From: an uncultured Clostridia bacterium
GTDB lineage: Bacteria > Bacillota > Clostridia > Christensenellales > UBA1242
Assembly (NCBI GenBank): GCA_944349905.1
Contig: CALVNR010000008.1
Coordinates: forward strand, 2,424 to 66,423
DNA: 64,000 nucleotides
Direction of reading: 5' to 3'
Part shown: one piece after another, positions 2,798 to 64,000 of the stretch
Numbering within the stretch: position 1 is the stretch's first letter
Layout: every line of letters starts with the position of its first letter
Translations under genes and position numbers: made by a program
Notes under the pieces: model-generated
What the model was told of the DNA's origin: nothing
Database searches by the model: none
What the model saw: only the letters and a program-made list of their open reading frames with translations

Positions 2798-2859
2798 AAA
2801 TATTTTAACTTACATAAAAGGTTAAAATATAAAATCTTCCTATAAGAAGATTTTGTATT

Positions 2860-3511: not shown

Positions 3512-3522
3512 GCTTATCCCTC

Positions 3523-47369: not shown

Positions 47370-50300
47370 TTAACCGTTTTTCCTTTTAAAATCTTTAAAG
47401 TTTATTGCTACATCAAAAGCAACATCTTGACCCAAAGCTTCAAAGTGTTTTTTACCACATTTAATTTTTATACTCTCTCTATCTCTTAAATCAAGATAAT
47501 TGGTTGAGCCTTTTGTTTCAATTACAAAATATAGTTTCTTTTCATTTTCTGTTTCAACATAAACTGCCCAATCTGGTGTATAATTCCCGATTGGTGTTGG
47601 AATTTTGAACTTATCTGGTATTTTAAAGAAAAGTTTAACATCTCCATCGTTGTCAAGTTCGGTAGCAAAATCGCGTTCTATACCCGAATTATCATATACA
47701 ATATGGTCATATAAAGAATGTTCCACAGCTATTGCATTTTTATCTAAATATGCAAATACTTCCGCGTTGCTTTCTAAATCAAATATATCAACAAAAGAAT
47801 AAGATTTACCTATTTGTTTAGTATATGTTATTCCATCGATACACTCGTTTGCACGAACATAATTAATTATTTTTGTTACTTCTTCAATATATCTTTGTGG
47901 ATTATTAACAAAATCTTGCAATCTATTAGATTTTAATATAATTTGACCTACTGTATTTCTTGTTAATTTACAATTCTCACTTATTTCGCGGATAATATCT
48001 GGAATTAAAAATTCGCTATCAACTTCTTCAAATTTAGCGCCTTGTGATGTGTAATCGATACCTCTTTTATCAATATTGATTTTAACTGTTTCTTTTGCGA
48101 TTTTTATCTTTTGAATTTGTGGCATTTCTGAAATAGATTTAACACATTTTTCAATCAATTTATCTTTGTCCATATTGATACGATAAATTGTTTTTTGTTT
48201 AATTTTATTCCATATAGATTGAAATTCTGGTTCCTCAAATAAATTATCCTTTCTCTTGACACAAACTTGTTTATACGCTGGCATAACAACAACTTTCTTA
48301 TCAGCTTTCTCTATTTGATTTACAATTCTGTCTTTTGCTCTTTCAAACTTTTTAGGTAAATCAATAGTTCCGTTCTTTAAGTCATTTTTAAGGGTATCTT
48401 TCATTTTACCCTTTGTGTCAATATAGTTTTTAGTCCTAAAAAAGTCTAAAAGTTCTCGTGCATCAGTAGCACTCGTTGTCTTTTCTTGCCCTTGTTCATC
48501 AGTGTATGAGATATTAACAAACATATCAATATCAAGAATACCAAACTTAATCCCTGTTTCTTCTTCAATTTCTTTTTGTAGTTTATCAGCAAATTCGGCA
48601 AAATTTTCTTCTGCTATAACATGTAAAATATTGATATTTTTATCGTCAACTCTTTCACCATCTTGATTAACACAAAGTCTTAGTCCACGTCCTATTTTTT
48701 GCCTACAAGTAAATGTAGTTTTGTTTTCAATCAATGTGCAAATTTGGAAAACATTAGGGTTATCCCAACCTTCTTTCAGTGCTGAGTGAGAGAAAATAAA
48801 TCTAACCGGACAATCAAAAGACAATAACTTTTCTTTTTCTTTCATAATAAGTGCGTAAGTATCATAATCGTCTTGACTTTCTTTTCCTTCGCGAGTATTT
48901 TTTATTTTACCTTTTTTGTCTTTGCTAAAATACCCATCATGAACTTTTGAAACATCAGTGTTATAAAAATCTTTAATTTCCTTATATCTAGGAAGATTTA
49001 TAAGTTCTTCATAACATTCTTCAAACATTTTAGCATATTCGCCTTTATCACTTTTTTCATTATCATAAACACGATATTTTGCAACTTCATCAATAAAGAA
49101 TAATGAAAGAACTTTGATTCCTTTTTGAATATACATTCTTTCTTTGTCAAGATGAGTTTCAATTGTTCTTTTTATCATTTCTCTTTTCTTAACGCTTTCA
49201 TCTATATCGCCAATAGATTGTCCCAACATTAAACTTTCAGTATTAGTAAACTCAATTTCTTCAAAACCTTCCATTGCGTTGATACCAGCAACAATATATC
49301 CGTCGTAAATATCTCTCCCCGTTTTTGCAACAAGATTTGTGTTAGGTCCTACTGTAATTGTATCTCTTTTTGTTGTTCCATCTTTTTTCTTTAAATCTAC
49401 TTCGAGTTTTGCCTTATATCCAGAACTAGCGTCAACTGACAACAATTTAATATATGGTTTATTGTAATCATCTGCAAGAGTATTATTAACTACACAAATT
49501 TGCTTTACTATGTGCATATTATATGCGTCAACCGGGGTAAGTCTATAAACTGTATTGATTTTTTGTCTATGAGTTGCCGAATACCTTAATTCAAATAATG
49601 GATTTAAACTTTCAATAGCTTCTCTTGATTTTGATGTATTATCAACACTTTGTGGCTCGTCAATAATAATGATAGGTTTACATTCTTGCATATACTCTTT
49701 CGCTGTTCTATCCATTGAAAAACTATCTTTTGGTGGTTGATTAAAAAGATTTTCACTCTTTTTAAACGCATCAATATTGATAATCATTATTTCAAGATTT
49801 GTTGACTCCGCAAAATCTTTTATTTCATAAAGTTTGTTAGAATTATAAATAAATGGCTTTAATGTTATACCTTCATATTCGCGTTTGAAATAATCACGAG
49901 TAGTTTGCATAGACTTGTATGCACCTTCTCTAATTGCAACACTAGGAACAATAACAACAAATTTTTTAAATCCATATTGCTTATGTAATTCAAGAATAGT
50001 TTTAGTATAAACAAAAGTTTTACCTGTTCCCGTTTCCATTTCAATATTAAAACGAAGTTCTTTTAAGTCAGTAAGTGGCAAAAGATTTCTGTCTTGAATT
50101 TCGTGCATATTTTTTTCAATTTGTTCCATAGATAAATCAAGACTATTGCCATATCCTAATAATTCATCTTTGCTAAAATCTAAAATATCTAATTTTTGCA
50201 TAGAAAAAGTTGTAGGCACATTTTTAGCACCCCTAAACAAGTCCACAACAGACATAACCGCTTTATCTTGAAATTCTTGTTTCTTAAATTTAAGTTTCAT
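47370..50300 (-). CDS. res: Type III restriction enzyme Res subunit (SF2 helicase + PD-(D/E)xK nuclease)
   Basis: 976 aa with motif I METGTGKTFVYTKT, motif II IIIDEPQS, motif V EGWDNPNVFQICTL and motif VI QKIGRGLRL. The C-terminal nuclease motif is YTPDWAVYVE...YFVIETKG. Confidence 0.88.
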   Translation of the reverse strand: MKLKFKKQEFQDKAVMSVVDLFRGAKNVPTTFSMQKLDILDFSKDELLGYGNSLDLSMEQIEKNMHEIQDRNLLPLTDLKELRFNIEMETGTGKTFVYTKTILELHKQYGFKKFVVIVPSVAIREGAYKSMQTTRDYFKREYEGITLKPFIYNSNKLYEIKDFAESTNLEIMIINIDAFKKSENLFNQPPKDSFSMDRTAKEYMQECKPIIIIDEPQSVDNTSKSREAIESLNPLFELRYSATHRQKINTVYRLTPVDAYNMHIVKQICVVNNTLADDYNKPYIKLLSVDASSGYKAKLEVDLKKKDGTTKRDTITVGPNTNLVAKTGRDIYDGYIVAGINAMEGFEEIEFTNTESLMLGQSIGDIDESVKKREMIKRTIETHLDKERMYIQKGIKVLSLFFIDEVAKYRVYDNEKSDKGEYAKMFEECYEELINLPRYKEIKDFYNTDVSKVHDGYFSKDKKGKIKNTREGKESQDDYDTYALIMKEKEKLLSFDCPVRFIFSHSALKEGWDNPNVFQICTLIENKTTFTCRQKIGRGLRLCVNQDGERVDDKNINILHVIAEENFAEFADKLQKEIEEETGIKFGILDIDMFVNISYTDEQGQEKTTSATDARELLDFFRTKNYIDTKGKMKDTLKNDLKNGTIDLPKKFERAKDRIVNQIEKADKKVVVMPAYKQVCVKRKDNLFEEPEFQSIWNKIKQKTIYRINMDKDKLIEKCVKSISEMPQIQKIKIAKETVKINIDKRGIDYTSQGAKFEEVDSEFLIPDIIREISENCKLTRNTVGQIILKSNRLQDFVNNPQRYIEEVTKIINYVRANECIDGITYTKQIGKSYSFVDIFDLESNAEVFAYLDKNAIAVEHSLYDHIVYDNSGIERDFATELDNDGDVKLFFKIPDKFKIPTPIGNYTPDWAVYVETENEKKLYFVIETKGSTNYLDLRDRESIKIKCGKKHFEALGQDVAFDVAINFKDFKRKNG

Positions 50301-50312
50301 TTTGTTTTACCT

Positions 50313-51110
50313 TTATATTAAATTATTATTTTTTAAGTATCTTATATAATAAAATGGTATATCAATATATTCTACCTTATAATAATCATCATCTGGTAGT
50401 TCTTCATTAACCCAAACTATTGCACCACCAATGTAATTTTCATCAATTAAATTTCCTAATTTTTCACAAGCTAAATTTATGTCTAGATTTATTAAACCTA
50501 CAATACTCTTATAAATATAATCATTTAATTCATCTAATACTAAAAAAGCCTTGTTGATAGTTGGCAATAAATCAATAAAAATTTCCTTTTGGTGCTTCAT
50601 AAGTATTTGTTTCGCTTTTTGATTTATTTTTTTATCATTTAATAAAACTTTAATTTCTAAAAATAGTTTATTTTGAGAAATATGAGTGAAAGGAACACCT
50701 TTATGTTGAGCATAATTCCTTAATGCTTTTACTACCATATATTCATAACTTGTATCATATAATTCACTATCTTTTATTTCCAAAATAGATTTATTATTTT
50801 TAAATATATTTTTATTATTTTTGTATTTGTTTAAATACTTTTTCCAAAATTCAATATTTGTATAAAAAGCATTTATTGAATTGAAAATTATAGAATATGT
50901 TTCAATTTCATCGTAATTTGTTTTTGCACAAAACTCATTAAACTGTTTTTGTATACTTTTATAATTTACAGAAAGAAAATTCAAATATCTTAACTCATTA
51001 ATTATATTAATATGCTTTATATAGAAATCCACGTCTTCATTTGTGAGTTCAGATTTTTTACATCTTCCTAAATCATCTTTTAATATTAGATGATATTTTC
51101 TAATATTCAT
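50313..51110 (-). CDS. HEPN-like (Rx4H) protein inserted between mod and res
   Basis: 265 aa. MVVKALRNYAQHKGVPF contains an R-x4-H motif in a helical context, as in HEPN/Abi-type proteins. Its start overlaps the mod stop. Confidence 0.5.
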   Translation of the reverse strand: MNIRKYHLILKDDLGRCKKSELTNEDVDFYIKHINIINELRYLNFLSVNYKSIQKQFNEFCAKTNYDEIETYSIIFNSINAFYTNIEFWKKYLNKYKNNKNIFKNNKSILEIKDSELYDTSYEYMVVKALRNYAQHKGVPFTHISQNKLFLEIKVLLNDKKINQKAKQILMKHQKEIFIDLLPTINKAFLVLDELNDYIYKSIVGLINLDINLACEKLGNLIDENYIGGAIVWVNEELPDDDYYKVEYIDIPFYYIRYLKNNNLI

Positions 51111-53056
51111 TAAAATAACCTCATTTCTTTGTTGCGAGATTTTAAGATTTCTTCTGCGTTTACTAAAAGGTTGTCTGTGTTAAAACAACGATCAGCAAAT
51201 AGATATGTTCCAACACTTTCATTTGCAAAATCTTCAATATCTTCTATTGTTAAATTTGGATATGTGCAAACAAGTAATTTATATTCTGGTGCTTCAATTA
51301 TATATGCTTTATCATTTTGTGTTTTTGTTATTGGTAAACCCAAATCAATGCCATATTTAAGCATAACTTCATAAACCAAATCAAACTCATTTCTATCATC
51401 TTTAATATAGTCTATACTTGTCTGAATTCTATTTTGAATTTCATCAACATCTTTTGTTGGTGTGTTATCCCATTTTTTAAGATTAGAGCTATCAAGTTTG
51501 AAAACTTTAAAACCTAAATCAATTTCTTTGCTTGGATCTTTTTGCTCGATTTCATTTCCCGCAATTTTTATTCTTTCTTTTGCTATCTCTGTCAAAAAAC
51601 AAGGTTTATTATGTTGTTCACACCACTCAATAGCATTCTTCAATGTTTGTTTCTCTCTATTTCCTTGTGCTGTTTTTAAATTTTCTTTTAAATTTTCAGG
51701 TAATTGAACACAAATATATTTTCTTGAACCTTCATCTTCAAAATTTAATTCCATTACAGCGTGTGCAGTTGTTGCTGAACCAGAGAAAAAATCCAAATAT
51801 ATTCCATCTTTATCATTTGCACATTCAATAAGAGTTTTTATCAATTTTATTGGTTTGGGAAATTGAAAGACTTTTCTCCCAAAATAAGATTCCAATAAAT
51901 CCGTATCCTTTCTTGTTTGCATTTTAAAATATGCTCTAATTAAATCTAATTTTGATGAATTAATATATGTCTTTTTAGAACACAGATTACTATTATCCGC
52001 TGGAAATTTGATTAGATGTTCTTTTATCCATTGCTGCCAAGTTTGTAAATTACATCGCCAACCACTATTAGGAGTTTTTAATTGTTCCCCTGTATATGGA
52101 TTTGTTCTAGTATCATGTGAACCCCCTCTTTGTGGATCATCAATTGGCCCAATTCTATATACGCCAAACTCATCTGCATACTTGTAATTTGATATGTTTT
52201 CATTAGTTAAATTATTGTTGATATAATATTCTTTCAATAATAATTCAATTTTTTCATAGTTGGGCTTATTTAGATTATAAATTTCTTCCAATTCGTCAAA
52301 TATTGGATTCTTAATTCCCCACTCATTTTCTTTTGCTTTATCATATTTTTTAACATAAACAAGACAATATTCGTGAGCAGTCGAAATAATTAATGGATCA
52401 TTTTTAGGTGTTCCTTCAACTACGATTTGTGCTATAAAATTCTTTTCTCCAAAAATATCATCACATATATATTTCAAGTTTTTAACTTCTTTATCGTCTA
52501 TGCTAATAAAAATAATACCATCATCTTTCAGCAAGTTTCTTGCAAGTTTAAGACGTGGATACATCATATTAAGCCAATTTGTGTGATAGCGCCCATCTGT
52601 ATCTGCATTCGATTTTTGTGCTTGTCCTGTTTGCTCTTTATAATTTTTTATATTATCTTCAAAACTATCTTTGTAAACCAAGTCCTTTCCTGTATTATAT
52701 GGTGGGTCTATGTAAATCATTTTAATTCTTCCATTATAAGACGCTTGCAAAAGTCTTAATACTTCCAAATTATCGCCTTCAATATAAAGGTTTTGAGTGG
52801 TATCCCAATCTTTGCTTTCTTCAATGCAAGGTCTTAAAGTCCCAGTAGAACGTTTTTGTGCAAGTTTTGTTGCTTCTGTTTTTCCGTTCCATGTAAAAGA
52901 ATATTGTTCCTTGTTGCGATTAATATTTTCGCCAAGCAACAATTCTAATTCTTCAAAATCTATTTTATCTTCTTTTACAATACTAGGAAACAACTCTTTA
53001 AGTTTTTCCACATTTTCCTTAATCAAATCCATACTTTGTCCGTCTAATTTATTCAT
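51110..53056 (-). CDS. mod: Type III R-M Mod subunit (beta-class N6-adenine/N4-cytosine DNA methyltransferase)
   Basis: 648 aa. Motif IV (MIYIDPPYNTG) precedes motif I (YLDFFSGSATTAHAVM), which is the beta-class permutation typical of Type III Mod. Confidence 0.88.
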   Translation of the reverse strand: MNKLDGQSMDLIKENVEKLKELFPSIVKEDKIDFEELELLLGENINRNKEQYSFTWNGKTEATKLAQKRSTGTLRPCIEESKDWDTTQNLYIEGDNLEVLRLLQASYNGRIKMIYIDPPYNTGKDLVYKDSFEDNIKNYKEQTGQAQKSNADTDGRYHTNWLNMMYPRLKLARNLLKDDGIIFISIDDKEVKNLKYICDDIFGEKNFIAQIVVEGTPKNDPLIISTAHEYCLVYVKKYDKAKENEWGIKNPIFDELEEIYNLNKPNYEKIELLLKEYYINNNLTNENISNYKYADEFGVYRIGPIDDPQRGGSHDTRTNPYTGEQLKTPNSGWRCNLQTWQQWIKEHLIKFPADNSNLCSKKTYINSSKLDLIRAYFKMQTRKDTDLLESYFGRKVFQFPKPIKLIKTLIECANDKDGIYLDFFSGSATTAHAVMELNFEDEGSRKYICVQLPENLKENLKTAQGNREKQTLKNAIEWCEQHNKPCFLTEIAKERIKIAGNEIEQKDPSKEIDLGFKVFKLDSSNLKKWDNTPTKDVDEIQNRIQTSIDYIKDDRNEFDLVYEVMLKYGIDLGLPITKTQNDKAYIIEAPEYKLLVCTYPNLTIEDIEDFANESVGTYLFADRCFNTDNLLVNAEEILKSRNKEMRLF

Positions 53057-53894
53057 TAGTTTTCTCCTTTTTATGAAACAATCTTTTCCACCAAGAATTT
53101 TTACCAGAAGTTTTGTTATTGTTAGTAATATTTATTTCAGTGTTTACATCAGTATGTTTTTCTGAACTATAATTGCCTTTGCCTGTATTAGATTTGTTTA
53201 TTTTTTTATTAATTTTAGTTTCGTTACCTAGATTTCTTGATTTAATACTTGAATTGTCAAAAGTTTGTATATCAAAATTGTTAAAAATTATTGATTTGCA
53301 ATTGTCCACAATTGATGTTATCTCTTTTTTATTTAAATCAAAATTATCTATATCAAACTCATCTAAATTACCAAATTTCTTTTCAAGATATACAACTAAG
53401 TCTAATACTTTACTTTCGACTTTGTTTATAACTTTAATTAATTCCGACTTATCTATATTTAAATAAGCATTAGAAATTGTAATAGTTGTGCCTTTTTGAA
53501 ATAAAACATAAGAAGAAACAGGTAAAGGAATAGATAAGTGTTTATTTTCATTATAATTTTCTATCATATTAACAATGGTTGCTATCGGTTGGAATAGTTT
53601 TTTGTGAGTTAAATTATCTAATGTTTCTTCATCAAGATTAATAGTAGGCAATATATGGTGTTTATAGGACCAAATTTTACCATATCCAATCATCTCATAA
53701 TCTCCCATTATGTTTGTAATTATTGACCGATATTCTGGAACTTGATCATCATCTTCATACCCATATAATTCTTTCTTTACCCAATTTACCATATCAATAC
53801 TTTCTAAGTCGTTTAATATAACATAAAGCCTTTTTAGAACAGACTCTAAATTTTTGCTTGTGGTAATATCTTTCAATATGTTACTTTTTGCCAT
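53049..53894 (-). CDS. AbiTii-like abortive-infection-type protein
   Basis: 281 aa. The N-terminal LKRLYVILNDLESIDMVNWVKKELYGYEDDDQVPEYRSI matches my recollection of the AbiTii domain (..W...EL.GY....VP.YR). It overlaps mod by 8 nt. Confidence 0.5.
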   Translation of the reverse strand: MAKSNILKDITTSKNLESVLKRLYVILNDLESIDMVNWVKKELYGYEDDDQVPEYRSIITNIMGDYEMIGYGKIWSYKHHILPTINLDEETLDNLTHKKLFQPIATIVNMIENYNENKHLSIPLPVSSYVLFQKGTTITISNAYLNIDKSELIKVINKVESKVLDLVVYLEKKFGNLDEFDIDNFDLNKKEITSIVDNCKSIIFNNFDIQTFDNSSIKSRNLGNETKINKKINKSNTGKGNYSSEKHTDVNTEINITNNNKTSGKNSWWKRLFHKKEKTNE

Positions 53895-53899
53895 TCAAT

Positions 53900-56512
53900 T
53901 TACCTCACTTCAAAGTATATCATAAAATCTTTTGATTTGCTCACTTTTACATCTAAATTTTTAGTTAATTCTTCACTTTTTGCCTTTAATTCACGATTGA
54001 TTTTTGATTTTGCTAAAAATTCATTGTCTTTTAATTCAAAAAGTTTTTCTGTAAGCTCATTTATTTGTTGGTTTTTAGCAAACTTATCTCCAAAGTTATC
54101 ACCAAATGAATTTTCTTTTAGATTATCTATTTCTTTTTGTAAAATCTTAATTTCTTTTTCAAGTTTGGCCTTTTTATCATTTGCAATCATATTTAAGTGA
54201 GAAATTGGCAATTTTACATTATCGTTGTATTTTATTTTAATTTCATCAACTATCTTTGGTATTTTTTCGTCTATTAAGTTTTCAAATTGATTTGATACAT
54301 TTATATCAATAGGCAATTCTCTATATTCTAAACTTTTCAAAAACAATATATTTTCACAATCTTCACTATTAATTATATTTCCATTTTCATCAATACCTAC
54401 TAGTATCTTTTCTTCAAATATTTGAAATCCAACATAGATTTGCAAATTATAATAAGCAATATATCCTTTTAATCCTTTATAATTTTCATTAGATTCCATA
54501 ATATAATGAGTTGGTTTTAAATTAGCAAAATGTGACAAATTAAATATCATATTTTGGCATGGTTCACTATTTAATGTAAAATGATGAATATATTCATCAC
54601 TATCAGTAAGTGTATAGACAAATGGTTTTGCAAACATATTCTTTTCGTGCCACTTTGTTTTTACTTCTAGTTCTGTTTCAGTTATAAAATTGTTTTTATA
54701 ATAATAATGTGCCAAGTCAAAAATTATTGTTTTTAATTCTTTAACCTTTTGTTTAATTATATCTGCCATATTTTTAGTTCGTTCGATTAGAGTTTTGTTA
54801 AAAGTATTAAATAACATTGTATTAGCATCATTTTTGACATTTTCTAGTTCTTCTTTAAATTGCTCACTTAAATCTGCAAAATCCATTTGAACTTCTTTCT
54901 TTTTTCTAACACCGGTAAGCGCGTCTATAATATTTTGTTCTATATCGCCATCAATTGCTCCAGAAATAATATTATCACTTGCCCCTACAATACTATTTGA
55001 AATATTAAAACGTTTATAAAAAAGTTCATACATTCTAACATCATAAAAATTGTTTGGGCAAATAAAGTTAACAACAAAAACATCACTTGCTTGACCAATT
55101 CTATGACATCTTGAAATTCTTTGTTCCATATCTAGTAAAACTTGTGGAAAATCATAGTTAACAACAAAACAAGATTTTTGCCAATTTAAGCTTTCATTAC
55201 CTTTATCTGTTGATATAAGTATGCTAGGTCTATCGCTTGATAGAAATTTCTTTATAGGTTCATCGTTTGTGGTTCCATTAAAATCACAAACATTATAATC
55301 AGTAAATTCCATTAAAAGCTTATGTATATGTTCTTGCGTCCCCGTATTACCCGTAAAAATAACACACTTTTTTTGCAAACCTTTTTTATAAAATATTGAA
55401 AAAGTCTTCTCTAATGCCTTTAACAACATATCATCTTTATTGTTTCTTTTAATTTCTGATGATAATTCTAGCATATCTTTTATTTCTCGACGCTCATTTT
55501 GATTTTCATCAGTAGCACATTTGTTTAATCTTGTATAAATTCCTGACAAAGTTTTACTTAAAGCATAAGCAGAAGAAGATAATGTGCCATACAACATCAA
55601 AGATAGTTCATAAGGGTCCATTTCTGGAAAAGCATATCTATGTGGTTTTGATATGTAATTCTCTATTTTTTTATACAATTCTTGCTCTAAATCTGTCATT
55701 TGATAGATTTGTGTTAATATTTGTCTTTCAGTTAATTTTGTTTCTAATTTAACCTCGTTTCTTAAAGTTCTAAATGTGTATGGTGCAATAATTTCTCTTA
55801 ATTCTGAATAGTTTTCAGGTTTTCTAAAATATCTTTTATGAAATTCATCATAATCGGTAAAAATATTTTCATCTATAAAATTTATTAGTCCAAATATATC
55901 ATCTTCATTCTTTTGTATTGGTGTCGCTGACAATAAGATTTTTTTAGCATTTGGGATAATTGAAATTATTGTTTCGGCAGTTTTATTCTCTTTGATTTTA
56001 TAACTTCTAAATCTATGGGCTTCATCTAAAATACATAGTTCCCAATCAATATTTTTAAATCTGTCACTATTTGATAATATATAATCATAAGTTGTTAAAA
56101 CAACTCCACCTTTAAATTTCTCTAAACTAATGAAATAATTTTCGGAAACAATTCTTTCCTCATTATCTAAAATATATGGTCTTATATCAAATTTCCTTAT
56201 TAAATCTATAAGCCAATCATTAACAGTTGGCGATGGCACTATTATCAAAACATTTCTATTTTGTCTTGTGTATTGAGAAACGATTAACAATGCCTCCATT
56301 GTTTTTCCAAGTCCAGCTTCATCAGCTAAAATAAATCCTTTTACAAAAGGATTTTCTAACGCAAAACAAGCAGCATATATTTGATGAGAAAAAATCTCAA
56401 TACCATTATTCAAATAAGTTGGTATCAAGTTTTCTTTTTTACCTAATTCATATTGTTTGCTTATCTTTTTAACAAGATAGTGAGCTTGCAAATCATTAGT
56501 TATTGTCATCAA
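53900..56512 (-). CDS. SNF2-family helicase with a C-terminal extension of about 350 aa
   Basis: 870 aa with motif I LADEAGLGKTMEAL, motif II ILDEAHRF, motif III LLSATPIQKN and motif VI QRISRCHRIGQ. The C-terminal half is an unassigned domain plus coiled coil. Confidence 0.85.
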   Translation of the reverse strand: MMTITNDLQAHYLVKKISKQYELGKKENLIPTYLNNGIEIFSHQIYAACFALENPFVKGFILADEAGLGKTMEALLIVSQYTRQNRNVLIIVPSPTVNDWLIDLIRKFDIRPYILDNEERIVSENYFISLEKFKGGVVLTTYDYILSNSDRFKNIDWELCILDEAHRFRSYKIKENKTAETIISIIPNAKKILLSATPIQKNEDDIFGLINFIDENIFTDYDEFHKRYFRKPENYSELREIIAPYTFRTLRNEVKLETKLTERQILTQIYQMTDLEQELYKKIENYISKPHRYAFPEMDPYELSLMLYGTLSSSAYALSKTLSGIYTRLNKCATDENQNERREIKDMLELSSEIKRNNKDDMLLKALEKTFSIFYKKGLQKKCVIFTGNTGTQEHIHKLLMEFTDYNVCDFNGTTNDEPIKKFLSSDRPSILISTDKGNESLNWQKSCFVVNYDFPQVLLDMEQRISRCHRIGQASDVFVVNFICPNNFYDVRMYELFYKRFNISNSIVGASDNIISGAIDGDIEQNIIDALTGVRKKKEVQMDFADLSEQFKEELENVKNDANTMLFNTFNKTLIERTKNMADIIKQKVKELKTIIFDLAHYYYKNNFITETELEVKTKWHEKNMFAKPFVYTLTDSDEYIHHFTLNSEPCQNMIFNLSHFANLKPTHYIMESNENYKGLKGYIAYYNLQIYVGFQIFEEKILVGIDENGNIINSEDCENILFLKSLEYRELPIDINVSNQFENLIDEKIPKIVDEIKIKYNDNVKLPISHLNMIANDKKAKLEKEIKILQKEIDNLKENSFGDNFGDKFAKNQQINELTEKLFELKDNEFLAKSKINRELKAKSEELTKNLDVKVSKSKDFMIYFEVR

Positions 56513-56540
56513 ATTTTCCTTTATGCCTAGAAATATGTTC

Positions 56541-56550
56541 TATTATAACA
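56541..56550 (-). promoter_or_regulatory. candidate extended -10 promoter (TGTTATAAT) of the SNF2/Type III operon
   Basis: The minus strand reads TGTTATAAT about 30 nt upstream of the SNF2 ATG. No good -35 element was seen. Confidence 0.3.
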
Positions 56551-56588: not shown

Positions 56589-56927
56589 TTAAAAATTAAT
56601 ATAAATTATATTTTTATTTAAAGACTTTGCATAATCTATTGTTTGTTTAGTTCCACCGGGTTTACCATCAAACAAAGCTATACAAAGAGAAGAATTGTTT
56701 ATCATGAATTTATTTCTTTCTTTCATGCAACCATCTTCATATTTGTCATAAATACATCTAATACAATCTAATTGTTTGATAATAGATTTATATCTTTGTT
56801 TATGTTCATTATTCCATTTTTCATCTTGATTCCTACAAGGTAATGCACCTATTAATCTTATGTTTTTATCGTTTTTCTTCAACTCTAAAACAATTTCAGC
56901 ACAAATCATATCAAATCCAAGAGCCAT
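56589..56927 (-). CDS. SLOG-fold DUF1273/YpsA-like protein, apparently truncated at the N-terminus
   Basis: 112 aa starting MALGFDMICAEIVLELKK...LIGALPCRNQDEKWN...FDGKPGGTKQTIDYAK. The in-frame upstream codons (KRGYDSFIAG-M) continue the family alignment but reach a stop after 17 codons with no ATG. A different frame holds ATG-MFYKKRPFAGLSKG. Confidence 0.55.
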   Translation of the reverse strand: MALGFDMICAEIVLELKKNDKNIRLIGALPCRNQDEKWNNEHKQRYKSIIKQLDCIRCIYDKYEDGCMKERNKFMINNSSLCIALFDGKPGGTKQTIDYAKSLNKNIIYINF

Positions 56928-56994
56928 TCCAGCAATAAAAGAATCATATCCCCTTTTGAAAGACCTGCAAATGGTCTTTTTTTATAAAACATAC

Positions 56995-58062
56995 TTAATC
57001 ATCTTCTTGGAAACTCTTTTTATATTCTTCGTAAGTGATACCTCTTTTCTTTAAGCTTTCCAAGAGTGCAACCATAAAAGGGCTTTCAAAATCAACTTTT
57101 TCTTCAATTTCACCTGTTTGAGAAACTTCCTCTTTTATTAATTTTGATAATTCAGATATTGTGATTTTCTTTATATCTTTTTTATTATCTTCTATGTTAT
57201 GGTCGCAAGACAAATCTCTCTCACCATACTCATTACCAATAACAAAGTATGAACAAACTGAAACTTTATTACCATAATTATAACCTGCATTAAAGATAGC
57301 TTCAATAAGTCTTAATCTTCCTTCCGTTGTTGTTTCTCTAATAGAATCCGACAAACAAATTAAAGGCCAATTATCTCTTTCTGGGTATTTTTCTGCAATT
57401 TTTTTCAATTTTTTTGCAAATTTTCGTGTTTTTTCGCCAATTTCTTCATTATTTTCTTTATTTTGTTTTATTGAAGAAACAATAAAGTTTTCTGTCCTAT
57501 CTTTAACATTAGGACATAATTCAATAATCTCAATAAGAGAAAATCCAAGTTTATTTAATATCTCCTTGAACTCTATCATTGTATTGTGGGCGTCAACTTC
57601 AGCGTCATGTTCACCCTCTTCGCCCTTTAATTCAAGTTCTTCCAAAATGTTTAATACTGATATTTCTTTTTTAGTATTCTTGTATTCTTTATAAAACAAT
57701 TTAACATCGTAAAAATCAAAATCAATACTTGGTAAATTATATCTTTTACAATCATCATTTAATGCCTTGGCGTCATTATTTAGCGAGTGCCCTAGAACAT
57801 AATCACAGCTTTCTATTATCTCCTTAATTTTAGGATAATATTTATTGAAAGTAAGTCTTTCTTCATACTCCTTTTTAGTTCTTGTAAGTATGTGTTTTAA
57901 TGCCCACCAATCCCATTCATCATTAGATATATATGGATTGATTATAAGATTATTCCTTTCTATTATTTCAAACTTTTCATTAGTGATAACATACCCGAAT
58001 TCACAAATTTTACAACCATTCATACAACTTGCATACTCTAAATCAAAAAATAAAATTTTCAT
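56995..58062 (-). CDS. DEDDh 3'-5' exonuclease (DnaQ-like) with a possibly BRCT-like C-terminal domain
   Basis: I moved the start to ATG 58062 (MKILFFDLEYAS). It has Exo I (FDLE), Exo II (HSLNNDAKAL) and Exo III (HDAEVDAHNT). The C-terminal region ICLSDSI...RLRLIEAIFNAGYNYGNKVSVCSYFVIGNEYGE is BRCT-like by eye. Confidence 0.75.
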   Translation of the reverse strand: MKILFFDLEYASCMNGCKICEFGYVITNEKFEIIERNNLIINPYISNDEWDWWALKHILTRTKKEYEERLTFNKYYPKIKEIIESCDYVLGHSLNNDAKALNDDCKRYNLPSIDFDFYDVKLFYKEYKNTKKEISVLNILEELELKGEEGEHDAEVDAHNTMIEFKEILNKLGFSLIEIIELCPNVKDRTENFIVSSIKQNKENNEEIGEKTRKFAKKLKKIAEKYPERDNWPLICLSDSIRETTTEGRLRLIEAIFNAGYNYGNKVSVCSYFVIGNEYGERDLSCDHNIEDNKKDIKKITISELSKLIKEEVSQTGEIEEKVDFESPFMVALLESLKKRGITYEEYKKSFQEDD

Positions 58063-58075
58063 TAGTATTTTCCCT

Positions 58076-58621
58076 CTATATTTTATCACCATTAAAGATA
58101 ATATCGTTTCCAACATTTATTTCTTCAATTAAATTCTTTTTGTTATAAAACCAATCTTTCTCATTTACATATCTGTCAGAAATATAATTGATATTTTGAT
58201 TTACTGAACCGACCAATGCTCTATTATTGTCAATTTTTTGCTCATCAAAATAACCATCAATGATGATATCACATTGATTTTTTAAATTATCATCAATTTC
58301 ATTTAATTGATATCCAGTAAAAAGAATTATACCTAATCCCAAACTTTTAACTTCTTCAAGTAGTTTAACTAAATCAATTTGTAAGAGTGGTTCTCCACCT
58401 GATAGTGTTACCCCCTCTATTTTGTTCTCTATTTTACTTTTTCTTATTATTTCAAGTAAATCTCCAAGAGAAATGATATTAGCTGGTTTTAAAGGTTGTA
58501 ATGTCTTATTACAACAACCTCTGCAATTTCTATTACAACCTTGAAACCATATACACAATCTTTTAAATGGACCTTCTACTTCTGTGCATGTATTTATAAG
58601 TGCAACATTAAACTTAATCAT
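58076..58621 (-). CDS. NrdG-like radical-SAM activase-type protein (4Fe-4S CxxxCxxC)
   Basis: 181 aa with EVEGPFKRLCIWFQGCNRNCRGCCNK (C-x3-C-x2-C) and the SAM-binding GVTLSGGEPLLQ. Its start overlaps the AAA+ gene stop by 8 nt. Confidence 0.75.
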   Translation of the reverse strand: MIKFNVALINTCTEVEGPFKRLCIWFQGCNRNCRGCCNKTLQPLKPANIISLGDLLEIIRKSKIENKIEGVTLSGGEPLLQIDLVKLLEEVKSLGLGIILFTGYQLNEIDDNLKNQCDIIIDGYFDEQKIDNNRALVGSVNQNINYISDRYVNEKDWFYNKKNLIEEINVGNDIIFNGDKI

Positions 58622-60440
58622 TAAAACTAAACTCTAATCCTTTGTCTGATGTTTTAACAAGCAATTTTGAACCTTTATATAGTCCTAAATCTTGTTTATT
58701 GTTAAACAAGAACATTGATAATTCATCAAGTAAAATATCATTAATTGCATTAAGAATATCTCTTCCGCCTTTTGATTTATCAACTCTCTTTAAAATATAT
58801 CTGATAAAATTAAGTTCACTTTCAAACTCTAAATCAAGTCTGTATTTTTCTTGAATTCCTTTCTTAATTGGATTTAATTTACTCTTTGCAATTTGGATAG
58901 CAAACTCATCATCAAGAATAAAATTAAATGGAATAATATTACTATAACCAATTCTTCCAAGAATTTCTGGTCTTTTTATTTCGTTATCAAAATAATTCTT
59001 AACAATCTTAATAAATTCTTCCGCTGTTTCTTCTTTATTATCAGACGGTTTAACTTCACTTGCACCAAGATTTGATGTAAAGATTATTATACTTTCGCTA
59101 AAATATACTGTTTCGCCTTTACTATCGGTTAATCTTCCATCTTCAAGTATTTGTAAGAAAATATCAAGTATTCTTGGATTTGGTTTAGCTGCTTTTTCAA
59201 TCTCATCAAATAAAATTACACTAAATGGTTTTTCTTTTATAGCATTTGTTAATTGTCCACCTTGCTCGTATCCAACATATCCCGGTGGAGCACCAATTAA
59301 TTTTTGGTCTGAATTCTCTTGTGCATACTCACTCATATCAAATCTAATACAAGCCTGCTCATCACCAAATAAGAATTTAGCAAGTGCTTTTGAAAGTTCT
59401 GTTTTACCAACACCAGTTGGTCCTACAAAGAAGAACACCCCTTTTGGCATGGACCTACTTGATGTCTTATGTAAACCTGTTAAACCCATATATGCTTTAA
59501 CAACTGTTTTCTCAATCTTTTCAATTGCTTCATCTTGTCCTACAACTCTTTCAGATAATTTCTTCTTGATGTTTTTAACATCTTCATAAGCAAGTTTTTC
59601 CCAAGGATTATCCTTTTCGCCATACTTGAATAATAAGTATAGTTTATCAAATGTTAACTTTTCTTCCTTTCTTGAAAGTTTTGCCATTTGTATTATTTCT
59701 CTATTGGTAAAATCTTCCAAAACATCAATATATTCATTTGTTCTACTGCTATTTAACAAAGTTTCGCCCGGATTGAATTTAAGTTCAAATCCTGCTTCAA
59801 TTTTTTCCAATAATCTACGTCTTTCCAATCTGTCTGGTTTAGACAATGTTATTGTTGAGACTTCTGGGTTTGCTTGATAAAAAGACAATGGGAAATTTGA
59901 CAACTTGTTTGTGATAAGTATAATTGTGCTTTCATTTACATCTGTTGATAGATAATTAACTTTTTTATCTTTAATTGATTTGCCCAACAATGTTAAATTT
60001 TGTCTTTCTTCATTATCGTGTTGACCACCATTTGAGAAAAGATAATCTGACCAATTTAATATAAATACTGTTTTTCTATTTTTATTTGTTAAGTTTTTAA
60101 AAACTAAATTAAAAATTTCACTTGGTTCTTTAAAGTTTCCATTTGATATAGTTGTATTTTGGTTTTCACCTTCATCATCAAGCGAGTATTCTTCACCTTC
60201 AACTTCTTTTTCTTCGGTTATTTTAAGACTACTTATATCACCCTCAATTCCATTTACTCTATCCCAATAAACAATATCGTCATACTTTAAATCTTCAAGC
60301 ATTTCTGTTAAATACTTTTTTAAGTCAACAATTTGATTTTTGTCATCAAGGTAAACATCACCGACATTGCCGTCAATGATAACGCACCTTTTAATACCGA
60401 CTTCTCTTTTTATTCTTTTAAAACCAATTTCTAATGCCAT
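58614..60440 (-). CDS. ClpA/ClpB-type AAA+ ATPase (single D2-like module) with a unique N-terminal region
   Basis: 608 aa with VVGQDEAIEKI, Walker A GPTGVGKTELSKALA, Walker B ILFDEIEKA and sensor TSNLG. The N-terminal region of about 290 aa is unassigned. Confidence 0.85.
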   Translation of the reverse strand: MALEIGFKRIKREVGIKRCVIIDGNVGDVYLDDKNQIVDLKKYLTEMLEDLKYDDIVYWDRVNGIEGDISSLKITEEKEVEGEEYSLDDEGENQNTTISNGNFKEPSEIFNLVFKNLTNKNRKTVFILNWSDYLFSNGGQHDNEERQNLTLLGKSIKDKKVNYLSTDVNESTIILITNKLSNFPLSFYQANPEVSTITLSKPDRLERRRLLEKIEAGFELKFNPGETLLNSSRTNEYIDVLEDFTNREIIQMAKLSRKEEKLTFDKLYLLFKYGEKDNPWEKLAYEDVKNIKKKLSERVVGQDEAIEKIEKTVVKAYMGLTGLHKTSSRSMPKGVFFFVGPTGVGKTELSKALAKFLFGDEQACIRFDMSEYAQENSDQKLIGAPPGYVGYEQGGQLTNAIKEKPFSVILFDEIEKAAKPNPRILDIFLQILEDGRLTDSKGETVYFSESIIIFTSNLGASEVKPSDNKEETAEEFIKIVKNYFDNEIKRPEILGRIGYSNIIPFNFILDDEFAIQIAKSKLNPIKKGIQEKYRLDLEFESELNFIRYILKRVDKSKGGRDILNAINDILLDELSMFLFNNKQDLGLYKGSKLLVKTSDKGLEFSFND

Positions 60441-60453
60441 ATAAGTTCACCTC

Positions 60454-61554
60454 CTATTTTTTATCTTTGTTTGTATTATATGTCTGATACTTCATTGTGG
60501 AAATTTTATCTGGATTACTCCATAATGTTTCTGATTTTGTAACTTTAATTCCATAAATTTTTTCTAAATCCTCTAAAAATGGATTTATATCTTTCTGACA
60601 AGCTTGGCCTTCATATCCATCAAATTTATATATAAATCTTCCATCAAGGAAAACTTGAAATTCTGCTGTTTGACCATTAACCTTTTGTGCTATTAAAACC
60701 ACTTGATTTTTATCTCGTTGTAATTTTATATTTTTCTTGTCAACAATAAAACCTCTTTGTTCAATTGATTTTATGATACATTTTAAAGCTTCTTTTCTTA
60801 CATGCTCATCAACAATTTCTTTATTGGTTTGTTCTTGAATTTTTTGTAATGAAGAACTATCAAACTTTTCTACCTTAACTATCTTATCAATCTCATTTTG
60901 TTCCAGATTGATATCTTTAAGTTGTTTTGTAATTTTTTCAATAATGTTTTCTTTATTATCACTAATAGTTTTATTGACTTCACTATCCAATATTATCTGT
61001 GCTTGTTTTACGATTTCATCAAAACTCTTACCAATATTGTTTTCTTTGATTAATTCTAAATAAACATAATCTTTTAGCACAATATCTTCAATCTTATTAA
61101 ATTGTTCATATAGTTCTTTACTAAAAGCGACTGTCCCACTGATTTGTTTTTGTAATAATTTATTTCTATCACTAACACTTGTTGCAAGAATTCTCTTTAA
61201 AAGTGTTTCATATTCGTATATCCTTTGAGAACTAAAGCTATTACATCTACTTAATAATAAATTCGCTTTATTAACGATTTCACGACTTGTATCTACTTCA
61301 CCATATACAACACCTTTTTGCTTTTGTTCCTCTGCTAATTGTTTTAGACTATTAATCTCTTTATTAAGATTATCTTTTTCTTTCAGTAGTTGTTCTCTTA
61401 ATTTTTTACTATCTTCATTTAACAACAATGATGAGTTATCTTCTATTTTTTTTAGGATAGTATCAATGTCAGACAATGTATTTTCAGCAGTTTTACAAAT
61501 GCTACAACACTGTATTGCTTGACCTTCAAAATCAATTCTTGCTTGATGGCTCAT
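60454..61554 (-). CDS. coiled-coil hypothetical protein with a C-terminal globular domain
   Basis: 366 aa. GAGG lies upstream of the ATG, and the gene overlaps the upstream gene by 23 nt. Long heptad regions are present. The C-terminal region is GFIVDKKNIKLQRDKNQVVLIAQKVNGQTAEFQVFLDGRFIYKFDGYEGQAC. Confidence 0.6.
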   Translation of the reverse strand: MSHQARIDFEGQAIQCCSICKTAENTLSDIDTILKKIEDNSSLLLNEDSKKLREQLLKEKDNLNKEINSLKQLAEEQKQKGVVYGEVDTSREIVNKANLLLSRCNSFSSQRIYEYETLLKRILATSVSDRNKLLQKQISGTVAFSKELYEQFNKIEDIVLKDYVYLELIKENNIGKSFDEIVKQAQIILDSEVNKTISDNKENIIEKITKQLKDINLEQNEIDKIVKVEKFDSSSLQKIQEQTNKEIVDEHVRKEALKCIIKSIEQRGFIVDKKNIKLQRDKNQVVLIAQKVNGQTAEFQVFLDGRFIYKFDGYEGQACQKDINPFLEDLEKIYGIKVTKSETLWSNPDKISTMKYQTYNTNKDKK

Positions 61555-63700
61555 TGTTTACCTCGCTTTTGAAAATATATTCATTCCATTTATTTAACTC
61601 ATCAATGTTAAAATGTATTTCATCTTTGCTTGGGTGTAATAACTTATTTCTACATATTCTTAATGTATGTAATAAACTTGCTTCGTTTGGTTTTATTAAT
61701 TTGTTATTTTCTGCTAACATTATTTTATCATAAAAATCCATTTCATTACTATCATTTAATGACAATTCCTTTGTTAGGTCATAATCAACTTTTATGACCA
61801 TATCTGCAACTGCCGATTTAAAATCACCTCTTTTAATTTTATTATCAATAAAATCAAATGTAATTTTCTCTGGTTTATATGATGATTGTTGCTCAATAAT
61901 TGCATACTCATAAATAGGTTTAATTATGCTGTTATAATTTTCAATTTCACTAAATTTATCAATTGAAAATTCCTTATACTTAACTAAATAGTTATAAGAT
62001 TTTTCAAATTCAACATAGTTGTTTACCAAATCTATCATATTATAATTTCCATCAATTACATAATCAGTAATAGATTTTATACCTAATAATTGTTTAAGGT
62101 ATTCTAATCTGTTTCTTGTTTTTTCAGATTCCAATGCTAGTTCGTTATCATCACTAATTTTTATATTCTCTATGATGTCATTCAAATATATATCATACAA
62201 ATTAATTATTGATAATGCTTCTATCATCTTATAATTACCATTTAATATACTCTTAAATAATTTTTCATCTTTGTCAATATTTTGAGTTACTTTCATTAAG
62301 AATTCATGTGAAGATAATCCCAATATTTTTTGAATTGGTTTTATAAAGTCAATATATGTAGCAAAATTTGATACATTGATTTCCTTTATTGTCTTTTCCA
62401 AAATTTGTTCAGCAATCAGTTGAACTACATTATCACTTTCTGTTAAAATTTTGCTCAATACATTCAAGTTTAATATTTGCTGTGATAACTCATTCTTTTC
62501 AAGAATATGTTTCGTTAAATACTGTGATAAATAATTATTATCATCACTAGAAATTAATTTTGCAATTAATATATTTCTATCTGTAAAGTCTAAACTTATT
62601 TCATTATATACTTCTTTATAGAAATATTCTTTTTCATTAGAGTTTAATTCTTTTTCAAGAATTAAATTAAGTGATATTGTTTTATCAATGCTCTCAACAT
62701 AAAAGTCAACACAAGCTGGAATATATGCTTTCATAATGCCATTACTTAAAGTTAAATAATCTGCTCCATAATCTTCTTTTTTTAATGTTAAACCGGTTTT
62801 ATACTTTCTTTTAAAAACATAGTATTTCCCTGTTTGAATTAATAATTCTGGTGTTTCTTGTGGTGCAGTTTGGATTTGAGATGGCAAGAAAATTGATGTT
62901 AAATTTGATATATCGCTTAAATTTTTCACTTTAACAATTTTCATATCATTTGCAAACTTAAATTTTTCTTTATAGGCAAATATGGCTGTAATATTTTCAC
63001 TTGTGTAATATTTCTTTACAAAATTCTCTAATCTATCATCAGTAAATGTCAAAGTTAATTTATTATCTTCTAATTTCAAAATGACACAATCTTCATATTT
63101 AGCACTTTGCATTTTCATTTCTTCATTTTGAACAGAAATTATTTCTTCTTGTTCTTTAAAATTAAAATTCTTTTTGTTTTCTTGAACAATATCTAAAAGT
63201 GATGAAAAGTCGTATTTATAATCTTTAAACATCTCTTCTGAAATTTTGTTTTCATTATCGTTTGGTTTCATTTTTAAACCAACAGATGTAAGAATTTTGT
63301 TGTTTAGCAAATCATAGTATAATGGCACTATTTTTACCAATTCTTTACCAGTTGGAACAGCTCCATTTTTAAAAATCTTGTTTCCTTTTTCTGTAAATTC
63401 AAAATCTTTAACCAAATATTCTTTAAAATAGTCAGCATTAAATTTTAATCTTCCAAGTTTAATAATATCTAGTTGTATCATATTTTCAATTTCATCAATA
63501 AACATAAATATTAAATCATTTGGAACTCCGAATTTTCTCAATACATCATATAGTTTTTCATCATTTTTAGAATTATTATTTATTAGTGCTAATAAAATAT
63601 ATTGTATGCCTGACGCTTGTTTTACTTCTGTATAATTTACCTTTGAACGCATAACTTGAATTGGTATAGAAAATGATGTCTTAAATCTTAAAAATTCCAT
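61532..63700 (-). CDS. 722-aa protein with a C-terminal HEPN-like (Rx4H, DUF4145-like) domain
   Basis: The C-terminus reads ...AVADMVIKVDYDLTKEL...ASLLHTLRICRNKLLHPS (R-x4-H). The remainder is unassigned. Its start is 1 nt after the helicase stop. Confidence 0.6.
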   Translation of the reverse strand: MEFLRFKTSFSIPIQVMRSKVNYTEVKQASGIQYILLALINNNSKNDEKLYDVLRKFGVPNDLIFMFIDEIENMIQLDIIKLGRLKFNADYFKEYLVKDFEFTEKGNKIFKNGAVPTGKELVKIVPLYYDLLNNKILTSVGLKMKPNDNENKISEEMFKDYKYDFSSLLDIVQENKKNFNFKEQEEIISVQNEEMKMQSAKYEDCVILKLEDNKLTLTFTDDRLENFVKKYYTSENITAIFAYKEKFKFANDMKIVKVKNLSDISNLTSIFLPSQIQTAPQETPELLIQTGKYYVFKRKYKTGLTLKKEDYGADYLTLSNGIMKAYIPACVDFYVESIDKTISLNLILEKELNSNEKEYFYKEVYNEISLDFTDRNILIAKLISSDDNNYLSQYLTKHILEKNELSQQILNLNVLSKILTESDNVVQLIAEQILEKTIKEINVSNFATYIDFIKPIQKILGLSSHEFLMKVTQNIDKDEKLFKSILNGNYKMIEALSIINLYDIYLNDIIENIKISDDNELALESEKTRNRLEYLKQLLGIKSITDYVIDGNYNMIDLVNNYVEFEKSYNYLVKYKEFSIDKFSEIENYNSIIKPIYEYAIIEQQSSYKPEKITFDFIDNKIKRGDFKSAVADMVIKVDYDLTKELSLNDSNEMDFYDKIMLAENNKLIKPNEASLLHTLRICRNKLLHPSKDEIHFNIDELNKWNEYIFKSEVNNEPSSKN

Positions 63701-63701
63701 A

Positions 63702-64000
63702 TTATCTATCCTCCTTTATTATGTCGTCTGATTGCAATATTTTTCCATATACATCTATTGTATTGATTATTTCCTTATAGACCGGATACGCTTGTCTATC
63801 CAATGCTTTATTGCCATCGATATCTGGTAAATTTATTACTCCACAATTAGATAAGAAATCTTTATTACCAACAACAATCAATAATTTCCTTGCTCTACTC
63901 AAAGCAACATTAATTCTTTCAAATTTCTTAATAAACTCATAATTACCTGTTCGTTTTATAGGGTTTCTAACCATTGACAAGATAATAATATCTCTTTCAT
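63702..64000 (-). CDS. SF1 (Upf1/DNA2-like, AAA_12-type) helicase, C-terminal end only
   Basis: ERDIIILSMVRN...INVALSRARKLLIVVGNKDFL is helicase motif VI with its typical tail. The ORF is open at the window edge. Confidence 0.7.
   Translation of the reverse strand, partial: ERDIIILSMVRNPIKRTGNYEFIKKFERINVALSRARKLLIVVGNKDFLSNCGVINLPDIDGNKALDRQAYPVYKEIINTIDVYGKILQSDDIIKEDR

Follow-up and report, generated by a model that had tools for sequence, protein, structure and literature searches.

A mobile five-gene cassette joining a Mokosh-like helicase and nuclease effector to a ClpB-like unfoldase and a radical SAM enzyme is a probable defence system

Introduction

Mokosh, which protects against phages, consists of a COG1112 helicase and a PLD nuclease, and in type I Mokosh the helicase MkoA has a kinase domain (Millman et al., preprint 10.1101/2022.05.11.491447). 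Single-ring ATPases that resemble the second nucleotide-binding domain (NBD2) of ClpB occur in two other defence contexts, as DolB of Dodola, which also has DolA, and as PDC-M37B of PDC-M37, which also has an A component. We know of no helicase, RNase or radical S-adenosylmethionine (SAM) enzyme that belongs to either system, and of no explanation for the role of ClpB-like ATPases in defence. Prokaryotic viperins (pVips) are, to our knowledge, the only well-studied radical SAM enzymes in defence. Here we describe a cassette in which relatives of these components are found together. It lies at the end of a 64,000-nucleotide (nt) stretch of DNA from an uncultured Clostridia bacterium (GenBank assembly GCA_944349905.1, contig CALVNR010000008.1), which is referred to as the window. 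Its core consists of five genes encoding, in order, a Upf1-like helicase, a 722-amino acid (aa) effector subunit, a 366-aa protein of a new family (p366), a AAA+ unfoldase and a radical SAM enzyme.

A preliminary description of positions 56589-64000 had presented six or seven linked genes as the best candidate for a novel multi-component system, one that matches no named system as a whole. Comparison of about 150 related loci establishes with high confidence that a five-gene, mobile, RNase-armed system exists. PADLOC v2 has no model for the whole system and matches only single components, with neither p366 nor the 722-aa effector matched by any model. No published description of the cassette was found in the full-text literature searched, which lies mostly outside subscription journals, hence this is no proof of novelty. 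The cassette is a Mokosh-like helicase-nuclease system with an unprecedented three-gene addition, and it is apparently undescribed.

Results

Five collinear genes form the core

p366 was used as the anchor to collect 65 loci from one-genome-per-species references (185,579 species genomes), and these were scored by tblastn with all window proteins. The helicase, 722-aa protein, p366, AAA+ and radical SAM genes were collinear and on one strand in 45/65 loci. Another 17 loci were interrupted by contig ends, with the remaining genes collinear, and three were degraded or aberrant (L046, L060 and L072). The radical SAM protein served as anchor in an independent scan that yielded 80 metagenome loci, 44 of which had 8 kb of upstream DNA, and the whole core was present in about 37 of these 44. 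Linkage is therefore conserved for five of the seven families in the window. This outcome of the co-occurrence check bears out the linked, multi-component cassette of the preliminary description and reduces its unit from six or seven genes to five, with an optional exonuclease gene and a flanking SLOG gene remnant. Dozens of unrelated loci repeat the gene order and overlaps of the window cassette, so its tight spacing is no accident of this one contig.

The hosts belong to the Clostridia, Bacilli, Acholeplasmataceae, Bacteroidales, Helicobacteraceae, Spirochaetaceae and Planctomycetota, and include the archaeon Methanimicrococcus hongohii. Those carrying the effector type found in the window (HEPN type) are mostly anaerobes. 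The distribution is patchy and horizontal, with 65 loci among the 185,579 species genomes. In the loci examined p366 occurs only within the cassette or degraded remnants thereof, and the radical SAM family, at an identity of at least 37%, is almost confined to the cassette. No p366 homologue was found in 50,697 phage records.

DNA comparisons define the boundaries of the unit. One copy, L011, is 99.3% identical to the window copy over 8.5 kb, and the homology ends exactly at the radical SAM stop codon. In L013-15 DNA homology extends from 340 nt upstream of the helicase to inside the exonuclease gene and does not include the SLOG open reading frame (ORF). A protein of about 175 aa with a weak helix-turn-helix signal precedes the helicase in 17 loci and is absent in the window lineage.

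All seven ORFs of 56589-64000 are on the minus strand at the positions given by the preliminary description, and all six of its spacings agree with ours. The helicase and 722-aa genes are separated by 1 nt, the 722-aa and 366-aa genes overlap by 23 nt, 13 nt lie between the 366-aa and 608-aa genes, the 608-aa and 181-aa genes overlap by 8 nt, 13 nt separate the 181-aa gene from the exonuclease gene, and 67 nt separate the latter from the SLOG ORF. One terminator-like site was found in the cassette, inside the AAA+ gene, compared with 1.5 expected by chance, in keeping with the earlier statement that internal terminators are lacking. The 5' end had also been placed correctly outside the window. 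The extension of the contig called for at that time was achieved by recovering the parent contig via the 722-aa protein, as a 487-kb metagenome scaffold (L001) that supplies the whole helicase and its upstream neighbours. The window is AT-rich (24-31% G+C) with nearly all genes on the minus strand.

The helicase and effector resemble Mokosh

Only the 3' end of the helicase gene is inside the window (63702..64000, minus strand). Its 98 codons are the last of a 1435-aa protein and match AAA_12 (1.3e-11, Pfam) and MkoA (3.2e-17, PADLOC). The gene is complete on L001 (5692-9999) and starts 4.0 kb past the window end. The whole helicase matches AAA_11 and AAA_12, and it matches the PADLOC MkoA model PDLC03920 (9.3e-90) over residues 344-1418, with about 1070 residues aligned. 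The helicase has intact motifs I, II and III (Walker A GPPGTGKT, DEVS and VGDHRQLPP), and a long insert separates the RecA halves. No match to Pkinase was found in the 1435-aa protein at E<=0.01, and residues 1-340 received no domain assignment. Upstream of the gene on L001, outside the window, is a 1.36-kb ORF-free stretch of which the last 340 nt alone are common to the sister loci. Rfam searches of this stretch returned sub-threshold chance matches alone.

The second gene (61532..63700, minus strand) encodes the 722-aa effector subunit, which carries a C-terminal HEPN RNase domain. R681, R684, N685 and H689 are invariant in 21 orthologues, forming the RNxxxH motif (R684-N685-x3-H689), and the motif is also present in the divergent L124. 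DUF4145, a HEPN family (PMC3710099), is matched by 14 of the 21 orthologues (best 2.7e-5), and others match HEPN_MAE_28990 (1.2e-5) or RiboL-PSP (4e-4). The window protein itself matches DUF4145 with an E value of 0.005 and 17.3 bits, below the Pfam cut-off of 23.1. Together the invariant motif and the matching orthologues uphold the HEPN assignment made earlier. An AlphaFold2 (AF2) model of the protein, built from a shallow alignment, has a predicted local distance difference test score (pLDDT) of 60.5 overall and a poor N-terminus, with residues 615-715 helical at pLDDT 60-90. Foldseek comparison of the model with the PDB returned generic helical repeats alone, and a search of PDB sequences with the 722-aa profile gave nothing below E 0.03. 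A large-database search found 10 close relatives alone, to which a profile search added none. No match to PLD or MkoB was found with Pfam or PADLOC.

A search of plasmids with p366 by tblastn revealed the same five-gene order in Photobacterium, Acinetobacter, Moellerella, Polaromonas and Leisingera. The Acinetobacter plasmid is pNDM1_010055, an NDM-1 plasmid. The second gene is annotated 'PIN domain-containing protein' in all five proteobacterial plasmids; PIN_4 (1.5e-19) replaces HEPN in these plasmids and in about 17 metagenome loci (PIN type). The N-terminus of the PIN-type effector matches MkoB (1.1e-5), and the N-terminal ~140 aa of the 722-aa protein is homologous to its PIN-type counterpart (hhalign 92.5%, E 4.9e-7). 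By transitive homology the 722-aa protein would, indirectly, possess a MkoB-like N-terminal adaptor domain. Since the PIN-type N-terminus is MkoB-like and aligns with the HEPN-type N-terminus, the first two genes appear to be a Mokosh-type pair, a helicase and an adaptor, in which the nuclease can be exchanged. Both the relationship to Mokosh (MkoA/MkoB) and the exchange of the effector domain for PIN in Proteobacteria had been missed in the preliminary description.

A third effector type was found in one metagenome lineage (L112:2073-5213). The N-terminal and middle parts of this 1046-aa protein are homologous to the 722-aa protein (hhalign 97%). It has no clear RNxxxH motif, and its C-terminal domain is exopolyphosphatase/GppA-like (PDB 7epq, 4e-8). 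At L037:7018-9957 an orthologue of the 722-aa protein carries a second HEPN unit in tandem with the first, and a long low-complexity tail rich in Lys and Asn.

The cassette shares with type I Mokosh a large Upf1-like COG1112 superfamily 1 helicase recognized by the MkoA model, a separate effector with a MkoB-like N-terminal domain encoded by the next gene, mobility, and location in defence islands. It differs from Mokosh in several respects. Type I MkoA has a Ser/Thr kinase domain whereas none was detected in the cassette helicase, type I Mokosh uses a PLD nuclease whereas the cassette effector is HEPN or PIN, and Mokosh has no counterpart to p366, the ClpB-like AAA+ protein or the radical SAM enzyme, the three further invariant genes of the cassette. 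Judged from these domains, the front pair is Mokosh-like and may work like Mokosh but is not a member of it, as the PLD nuclease and kinase domain are absent. The proteobacterial version also resembles eukaryotic nonsense-mediated decay, in which the Upf1-type helicase is likewise accompanied by a separate PIN-domain (PIN_4) endonuclease, SMG6. This is an architectural parallel at the level of domain families alone, and the window version uses HEPN.

p366 defines a new family

The third gene (60454..61554, minus strand) encodes p366, for which no match was found in Pfam, PADLOC, NCBIfam or PDB sequences, the PDB profile search giving nothing below E 0.03. The family comprises 559 homologues with about 40% identity over the full length. 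Among 1.84 billion representatives the family accounts for 348 clusters at 50% identity with E<=1e-10. Two relatives, P0049 and P0131, are 613-630 aa long with an extra N-terminal part and may be fusions or assembly artefacts. In the AF2 model of p366 (pLDDT 73.5) the N-terminal two thirds are helical and coiled-coil, and the C-terminal domain is small and of the alpha/beta type. This domain has a loop, Y314-x-G316-x-x-C319-x-x-D322, that is invariant across HEPN and PIN types, and an N347-P-D349 motif. The loop falls in a low-confidence region of the model and is predicted to be flexible.

The AAA+ unfoldase and radical SAM enzyme form a pair

The fourth gene (58614..60440, minus strand) encodes a 608-aa AAA+ unfoldase (AAA_2, 2.7e-51) with a single ClpB-NBD2-like module (residues ~285-600) behind a family-specific N-terminal domain. 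Whereas ClpB/Hsp100 proteins have two nucleotide-binding domains, an N-domain and a middle domain, the ClpB match (1.4e-74) covers NBD2 alone (query 288-604 to ClpB 556-852), and the score against the ClpB equivalog is 252 bits with a cut-off of 1232. Across 22 orthologues there is no variation in Walker A, the pore loop GAPPGYVGYE with its pore-loop Tyr, Walker B, sensor 1, the Arg finger or sensor 2. This is the best conserved protein of the cassette, the HEPN-type loci sharing 57-85% identity with one another and about 40% with the PIN type. It is recognized in PADLOC by PDC-M37B (8.7e-34) and DolB (3.2e-21), which are likewise single-ring ATPases. No cassette protein, p366 included, matches PDC-M37A, and none matches DolA. 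At L046 the ClpB-like ORF (1072-3831) extends to 919 aa and has no radical SAM gene after it, which may reflect a fusion or an assembly artefact.

The fifth gene (58076..58621, minus strand) encodes a 181-aa NrdG/PflA-like radical SAM enzyme that matches Fer4_12 (4.2e-28) and Radical_SAM (1.2e-12; 48.8 bits, cut-off 29.5). C29-x3-C33-x2-C36, G75-G-E-P78 and R134..G138-S-x-N141-Q are invariant in 21 orthologues, as are the signatures EGPxxR, WxQGCxxxCxxCCN, GGEP and RxxxGSxNQ. With the motifs of both proteins intact, the AAA+ and radical SAM assignments of the preliminary description hold, and the cassette enzymes look active from their invariant residues. The minimal radical SAM fold is shared with the NrdG and PflA activases, together with [DE]GPxxR, QGCxxxCxxCxN, GGEP and RxxxGSxNQ. 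The nearest solved structure is the PFL activase 8fo0 (2.5e-7), and the match to NrdG TIGR02491 (1.8e-24, 86.4 bits) is below the cut-off of 126.1. NrdG and PflA serve glycyl-radical enzymes, whereas the cassette enzyme is always paired with a AAA+ unfoldase and has versions in strict aerobes. No NrdD or PFL gene was found in the neighbourhoods examined.

A viperin-like enzyme was rejected on score and length (NF038283 28 bits against a cut-off of 180; 181 aa). The pVips are radical SAM enzymes in a defence context, as here, but the cluster-binding core alone aligns (PADLOC pVip 5e-9), and the C-terminal nucleotide-binding extension of viperins is absent from the cassette enzyme. Other radical SAM genes do occur nearby on two plasmids. 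Two lie near the cassette of the Photobacterium plasmid. On pNDM1_010055 the segment directly after the PIN-type cassette (L080:13175-15157) holds a thymidylate-kinase-like gene (PDC-M51B/VakA), then a viperin-like radical SAM gene (328 aa) and an ORF of 162 aa, which are probably a separate system.

In most loci the unfoldase gene overlaps the radical SAM gene. The two are also found side by side, in reversed order, on the Aristaeella lactis plasmid NZ_CP069422.1 (L084, 17926-34762), with 35% identity over 594 aa (E 5e-104) for the unfoldase and 32% (E 8e-22) for the radical SAM protein. The Aristaeella operon also encodes a DUF4011/AAA_11/AAA_12 helicase-nuclease with REase_MTES_1575, two Ser/Thr kinases, a zinc-ribbon-FHA protein, a PP2C phosphatase and a DUF6273 protein. 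Its 430-aa protein was considered as a p366 analogue and rejected (hhalign probability 0.2%). Recurrence in this operon shows that the unfoldase and radical SAM pair is portable and is again coupled to a Upf1-type helicase-nuclease. A ClpB-like homologue stands alone in Geminocystis. More distant NrdG-like genes adjoin other AAA ATPases on Bacillus cereus and Calothrix plasmids.

The sixth gene is optional and the SLOG ORF is a remnant

The 355-aa exonuclease gene (56995..58062, minus strand) follows the radical SAM gene in the window. These coordinates are those of the called start, and the longest ORF would begin at 58116. The preliminary identification of a DEDD 3'-5' exonuclease is correct. 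The DEDDh domain occupies the N-terminal ~190 aa, with motifs DLE, NND and HDAEVD, and matches RNase_T (2.5e-7; 31.8 bits, cut-off 24). Its membership in the core did not survive comparison, as the gene is absent from most loci, including the 99.3% identical copy L011. It directly follows the radical SAM gene in four lineages alone (L001/L013-15, L050, L074 and L108). Elsewhere the sixth position holds RNase III, which occurs there in many HEPN-type loci and is commoner than the exonuclease, or other genes, or nothing. The exonuclease is an optional add-on.

The 112-aa SLOG ORF (56589..56927, minus strand) matches YpsA (6.6e-18) at positions 49-153 of 168, so its N-terminus is missing. It begins at a GGALGFD motif, about 45 residues after the TGHR start of a full-length relative at L077. 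Of about 150 loci, only 3 have a SLOG gene near the system, the window and two others in which it is upstream or on the opposite strand. The ORF has lost its 5' part and is what remains of a neighbouring gene that belonged to the surrounding mobile element, outside the system. The locus survey, the DNA homology limits and the SLOG truncation led us to reject both the exonuclease and SLOG as core parts, and the nucleotide-signalling pathway that had been built on the SLOG domain loses its basis.

The cassette lies among defence genes and on mobile elements

Downstream in the window is an operon (47370-56512, minus strand) that starts with a DrmD-like SNF2 helicase (PADLOC DrmD 1.6e-98) and AbiTii (1.8e-31) and continues with a Type III methyltransferase, a 265-aa ORF without assignment and a Type III restriction enzyme. 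It is an unusual Type III restriction-modification (R-M) operon with two extra defence-type genes. A TGnTATAAT-like box is located just upstream of it, at about 56536-56548. The Type III restriction gene is directly followed by a 1183-aa ORF (43799-47350, minus strand), for which PADLOC gave no match. Next is a complete PADLOC candidate, PDC-M33, at 39875-43423 (minus strand; A 1.9e-189, B 2.6e-89, C 5.4e-63). On the other side of the cassette, L001:1-5692 encodes Menshen-like NsnB (2.7e-69) and NsnA (7.3e-78), a Dam-type methylase and an integrase. The R-M operon with its DrmD-like helicase and AbiTii, PDC-M33 and NsnAB place the cassette in a defence island. At other loci the neighbours include Type I R-M, NERD, NYN, a viperin plus a kinase, and toxin-antitoxin genes.

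Farther away in the window are a tRNA-Thr(GGT) gene (14507-14582, plus strand) and a tmRNA gene (6283-6668, minus strand; tag ANNQSSYNTAAMAA). tmRNA genes are common integration sites of islands, but about 50 kb separate this one from the cassette.

The cassette is carried on integrative and conjugative elements (ICEs) and plasmids, where it adjoins ArdA, integrases and recombinases. In Bacteroidales conjugative transposons it adjoins PcfJ/PcfK/ArdA and in Clostridia it is beside serine recombinases. It is next to ArdA on a conjugative Moellerella plasmid, and next to SSB and repABC on a Leisingera plasmid.

Discussion

The cassette is a mobile five-gene system of two modules, and its function is most likely anti-phage or anti-plasmid defence. 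From the gene content, conserved linkage, intact catalytic motifs, effector swapping and mobile and defence-island context observed, we infer with moderate confidence that it is a defence system, the target of which may be RNA. In the front module the effector would dock on the Upf1/MkoA-like helicase through its MkoB-like N-terminal domain. The helicase may patrol or sense foreign RNA or RNA/DNA intermediates, after which the HEPN domain would cleave RNA and halt the invader or the infected cell. In some lineages the sixth gene would bring a second nuclease, RNase III or, in the window, the DEDDh exonuclease.

The back module consists of p366, the unfoldase with its intact substrate-threading pore and the radical SAM enzyme, and may be a control or activation device. 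Our confidence in the mechanism of this trio is low. The radical SAM enzyme would modify a protein substrate via a 5'-deoxyadenosyl radical, and the AAA+ ring would present or reset that substrate. The best candidate substrate is the Y-x-G-x-x-C loop of p366, which is invariant and predicted to be flexible. A more specific proposal, that the unfoldase and radical SAM enzyme are a portable immune control module and that covalent modification of the p366 loop, or a radical placed on it, switches on the helicase-tethered RNase, is advanced tentatively and is one we would sooner bet against.

Several observations weigh against a defence system working in this manner. The PADLOC matches of the components are single ones (MkoA, PDC-M37B and DolB), and no curated defence-system definition is reached. 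Foldseek gave no significant match for the p366 model, whose C-terminal domain is weakly like the spermine-synthase N-domain and TBP-like folds (E ~0.01), or for the 722-aa model. The strict RVxGY glycyl-radical signature is absent from 334 core proteins and from two PIN-type sets, and the PIN type does not keep G313, the glycine of the GY pair in p366. The PIN type is found in strict aerobes such as Acinetobacter and Polaromonas, which speaks against oxygen-labile glycyl-radical chemistry. Finally, the cassette often abuts leading-region or anti-restriction genes on the opposite strand (L003-L005, L081 and L083), as would fit a role serving the element. A canonical glycyl-radical substrate was considered and rejected, given the missing PROSITE-type signature and the variable p366 glycine.

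The abutting leading-region and anti-restriction genes lead to the alternative that survives best, in which the cassette serves the mobile element rather than host defence, through addiction or stabilisation, as a weapon against competing elements, or by helping establishment after transfer. The conjugation, anti-restriction, replication and recombinase genes that adjoin it in Bacteroidales, Moellerella, Leisingera and Clostridia are what such a function would lead one to expect, and the toxins of addiction modules are commonly HEPN or PIN domains. This context discriminates poorly, however, as mobile elements routinely carry defence systems. In the window, and at other loci, recognised defence systems surround the cassette. 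There is no evident antitoxin-like partner, and a 10-kb cassette of five enzymes is large for plain addiction. The closest named relative, Mokosh, protects against phages (10.1101/2022.05.11.491447). An element function is therefore unlikely.

Defence islands pack systems tightly, so the five genes could also be two or three independent systems side by side, such as a Mokosh-like pair, a Dodola/PDC-M37-like pair of p366 and ATPase, and a radical SAM enzyme with a nuclease. The ClpB-like protein does match DolB and PDC-M37B, the Aristaeella operon has the unfoldase and radical SAM enzyme without the helicase, effector or p366 of the cassette, and the homologue in Geminocystis is alone. But order, strand and overlaps are kept across phyla in 45/65 genome and about 37/44 metagenome loci, and blocks of DNA homology start and stop around all five genes together. 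The confinement of p366 to the cassette and its remnants, and the near confinement of the radical SAM family, point the same way, and p366 matches neither DolA nor any PDC-M37A model. Independent systems are distinctly unlikely.

A seven-part signalling or modification pathway, with SLOG as the nucleotide sensor, the radical SAM enzyme making or modifying the signal and the exonuclease and HEPN protein as effectors, is very improbable. Seven ORFs do lie close together on one strand in the window, and SLOG domains bind nucleotides in other conflict systems. Nevertheless, the SLOG ORF lacks the first ~48 profile positions, the nearest sister loci do not have it, most loci have no exonuclease, and no conserved cyclase, synthase or other signal-making enzyme is present. 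A cluster with a housekeeping or metabolic role, in which an anaerobic ribonucleotide reductase activase might be joined by genes for a chaperone and for RNA turnover, is scarcely credible, for although the radical SAM protein is most like NrdG, the AAA+ protein most like ClpB and the HEPN-type hosts mostly anaerobes, both proteins score below equivalog cut-offs (86 vs 126 bits for NrdG, 252 vs 1232 bits for ClpB), no NrdD or other glycyl-radical enzyme is linked, and the distribution is patchy and horizontal, with plasmid and ICE carriage.

A defence system thus remains the preferred reading. The family is rare yet diverse, and its versions on plasmids of culturable Proteobacteria, such as the Acinetobacter NDM-1 plasmid and conjugative Moellerella plasmids, are ready to test. 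The Mokosh helicase/adaptor scaffold appears to accommodate HEPN, PIN and PLD nucleases, and a further module of three genes can be connected to it. The cassette could also reveal the role of ClpB-like ATPases, such as those of Dodola and PDC-M37, in defence. If it is protective, radical SAM chemistry would, after viperins, have a second use in prokaryotic immunity, and one that differs in mechanism. If the unfoldase and radical SAM enzyme are indeed a portable control module, this would be the first defence system in which radical chemistry on a protein, and not an antiviral nucleotide, serves as the signal or licence.

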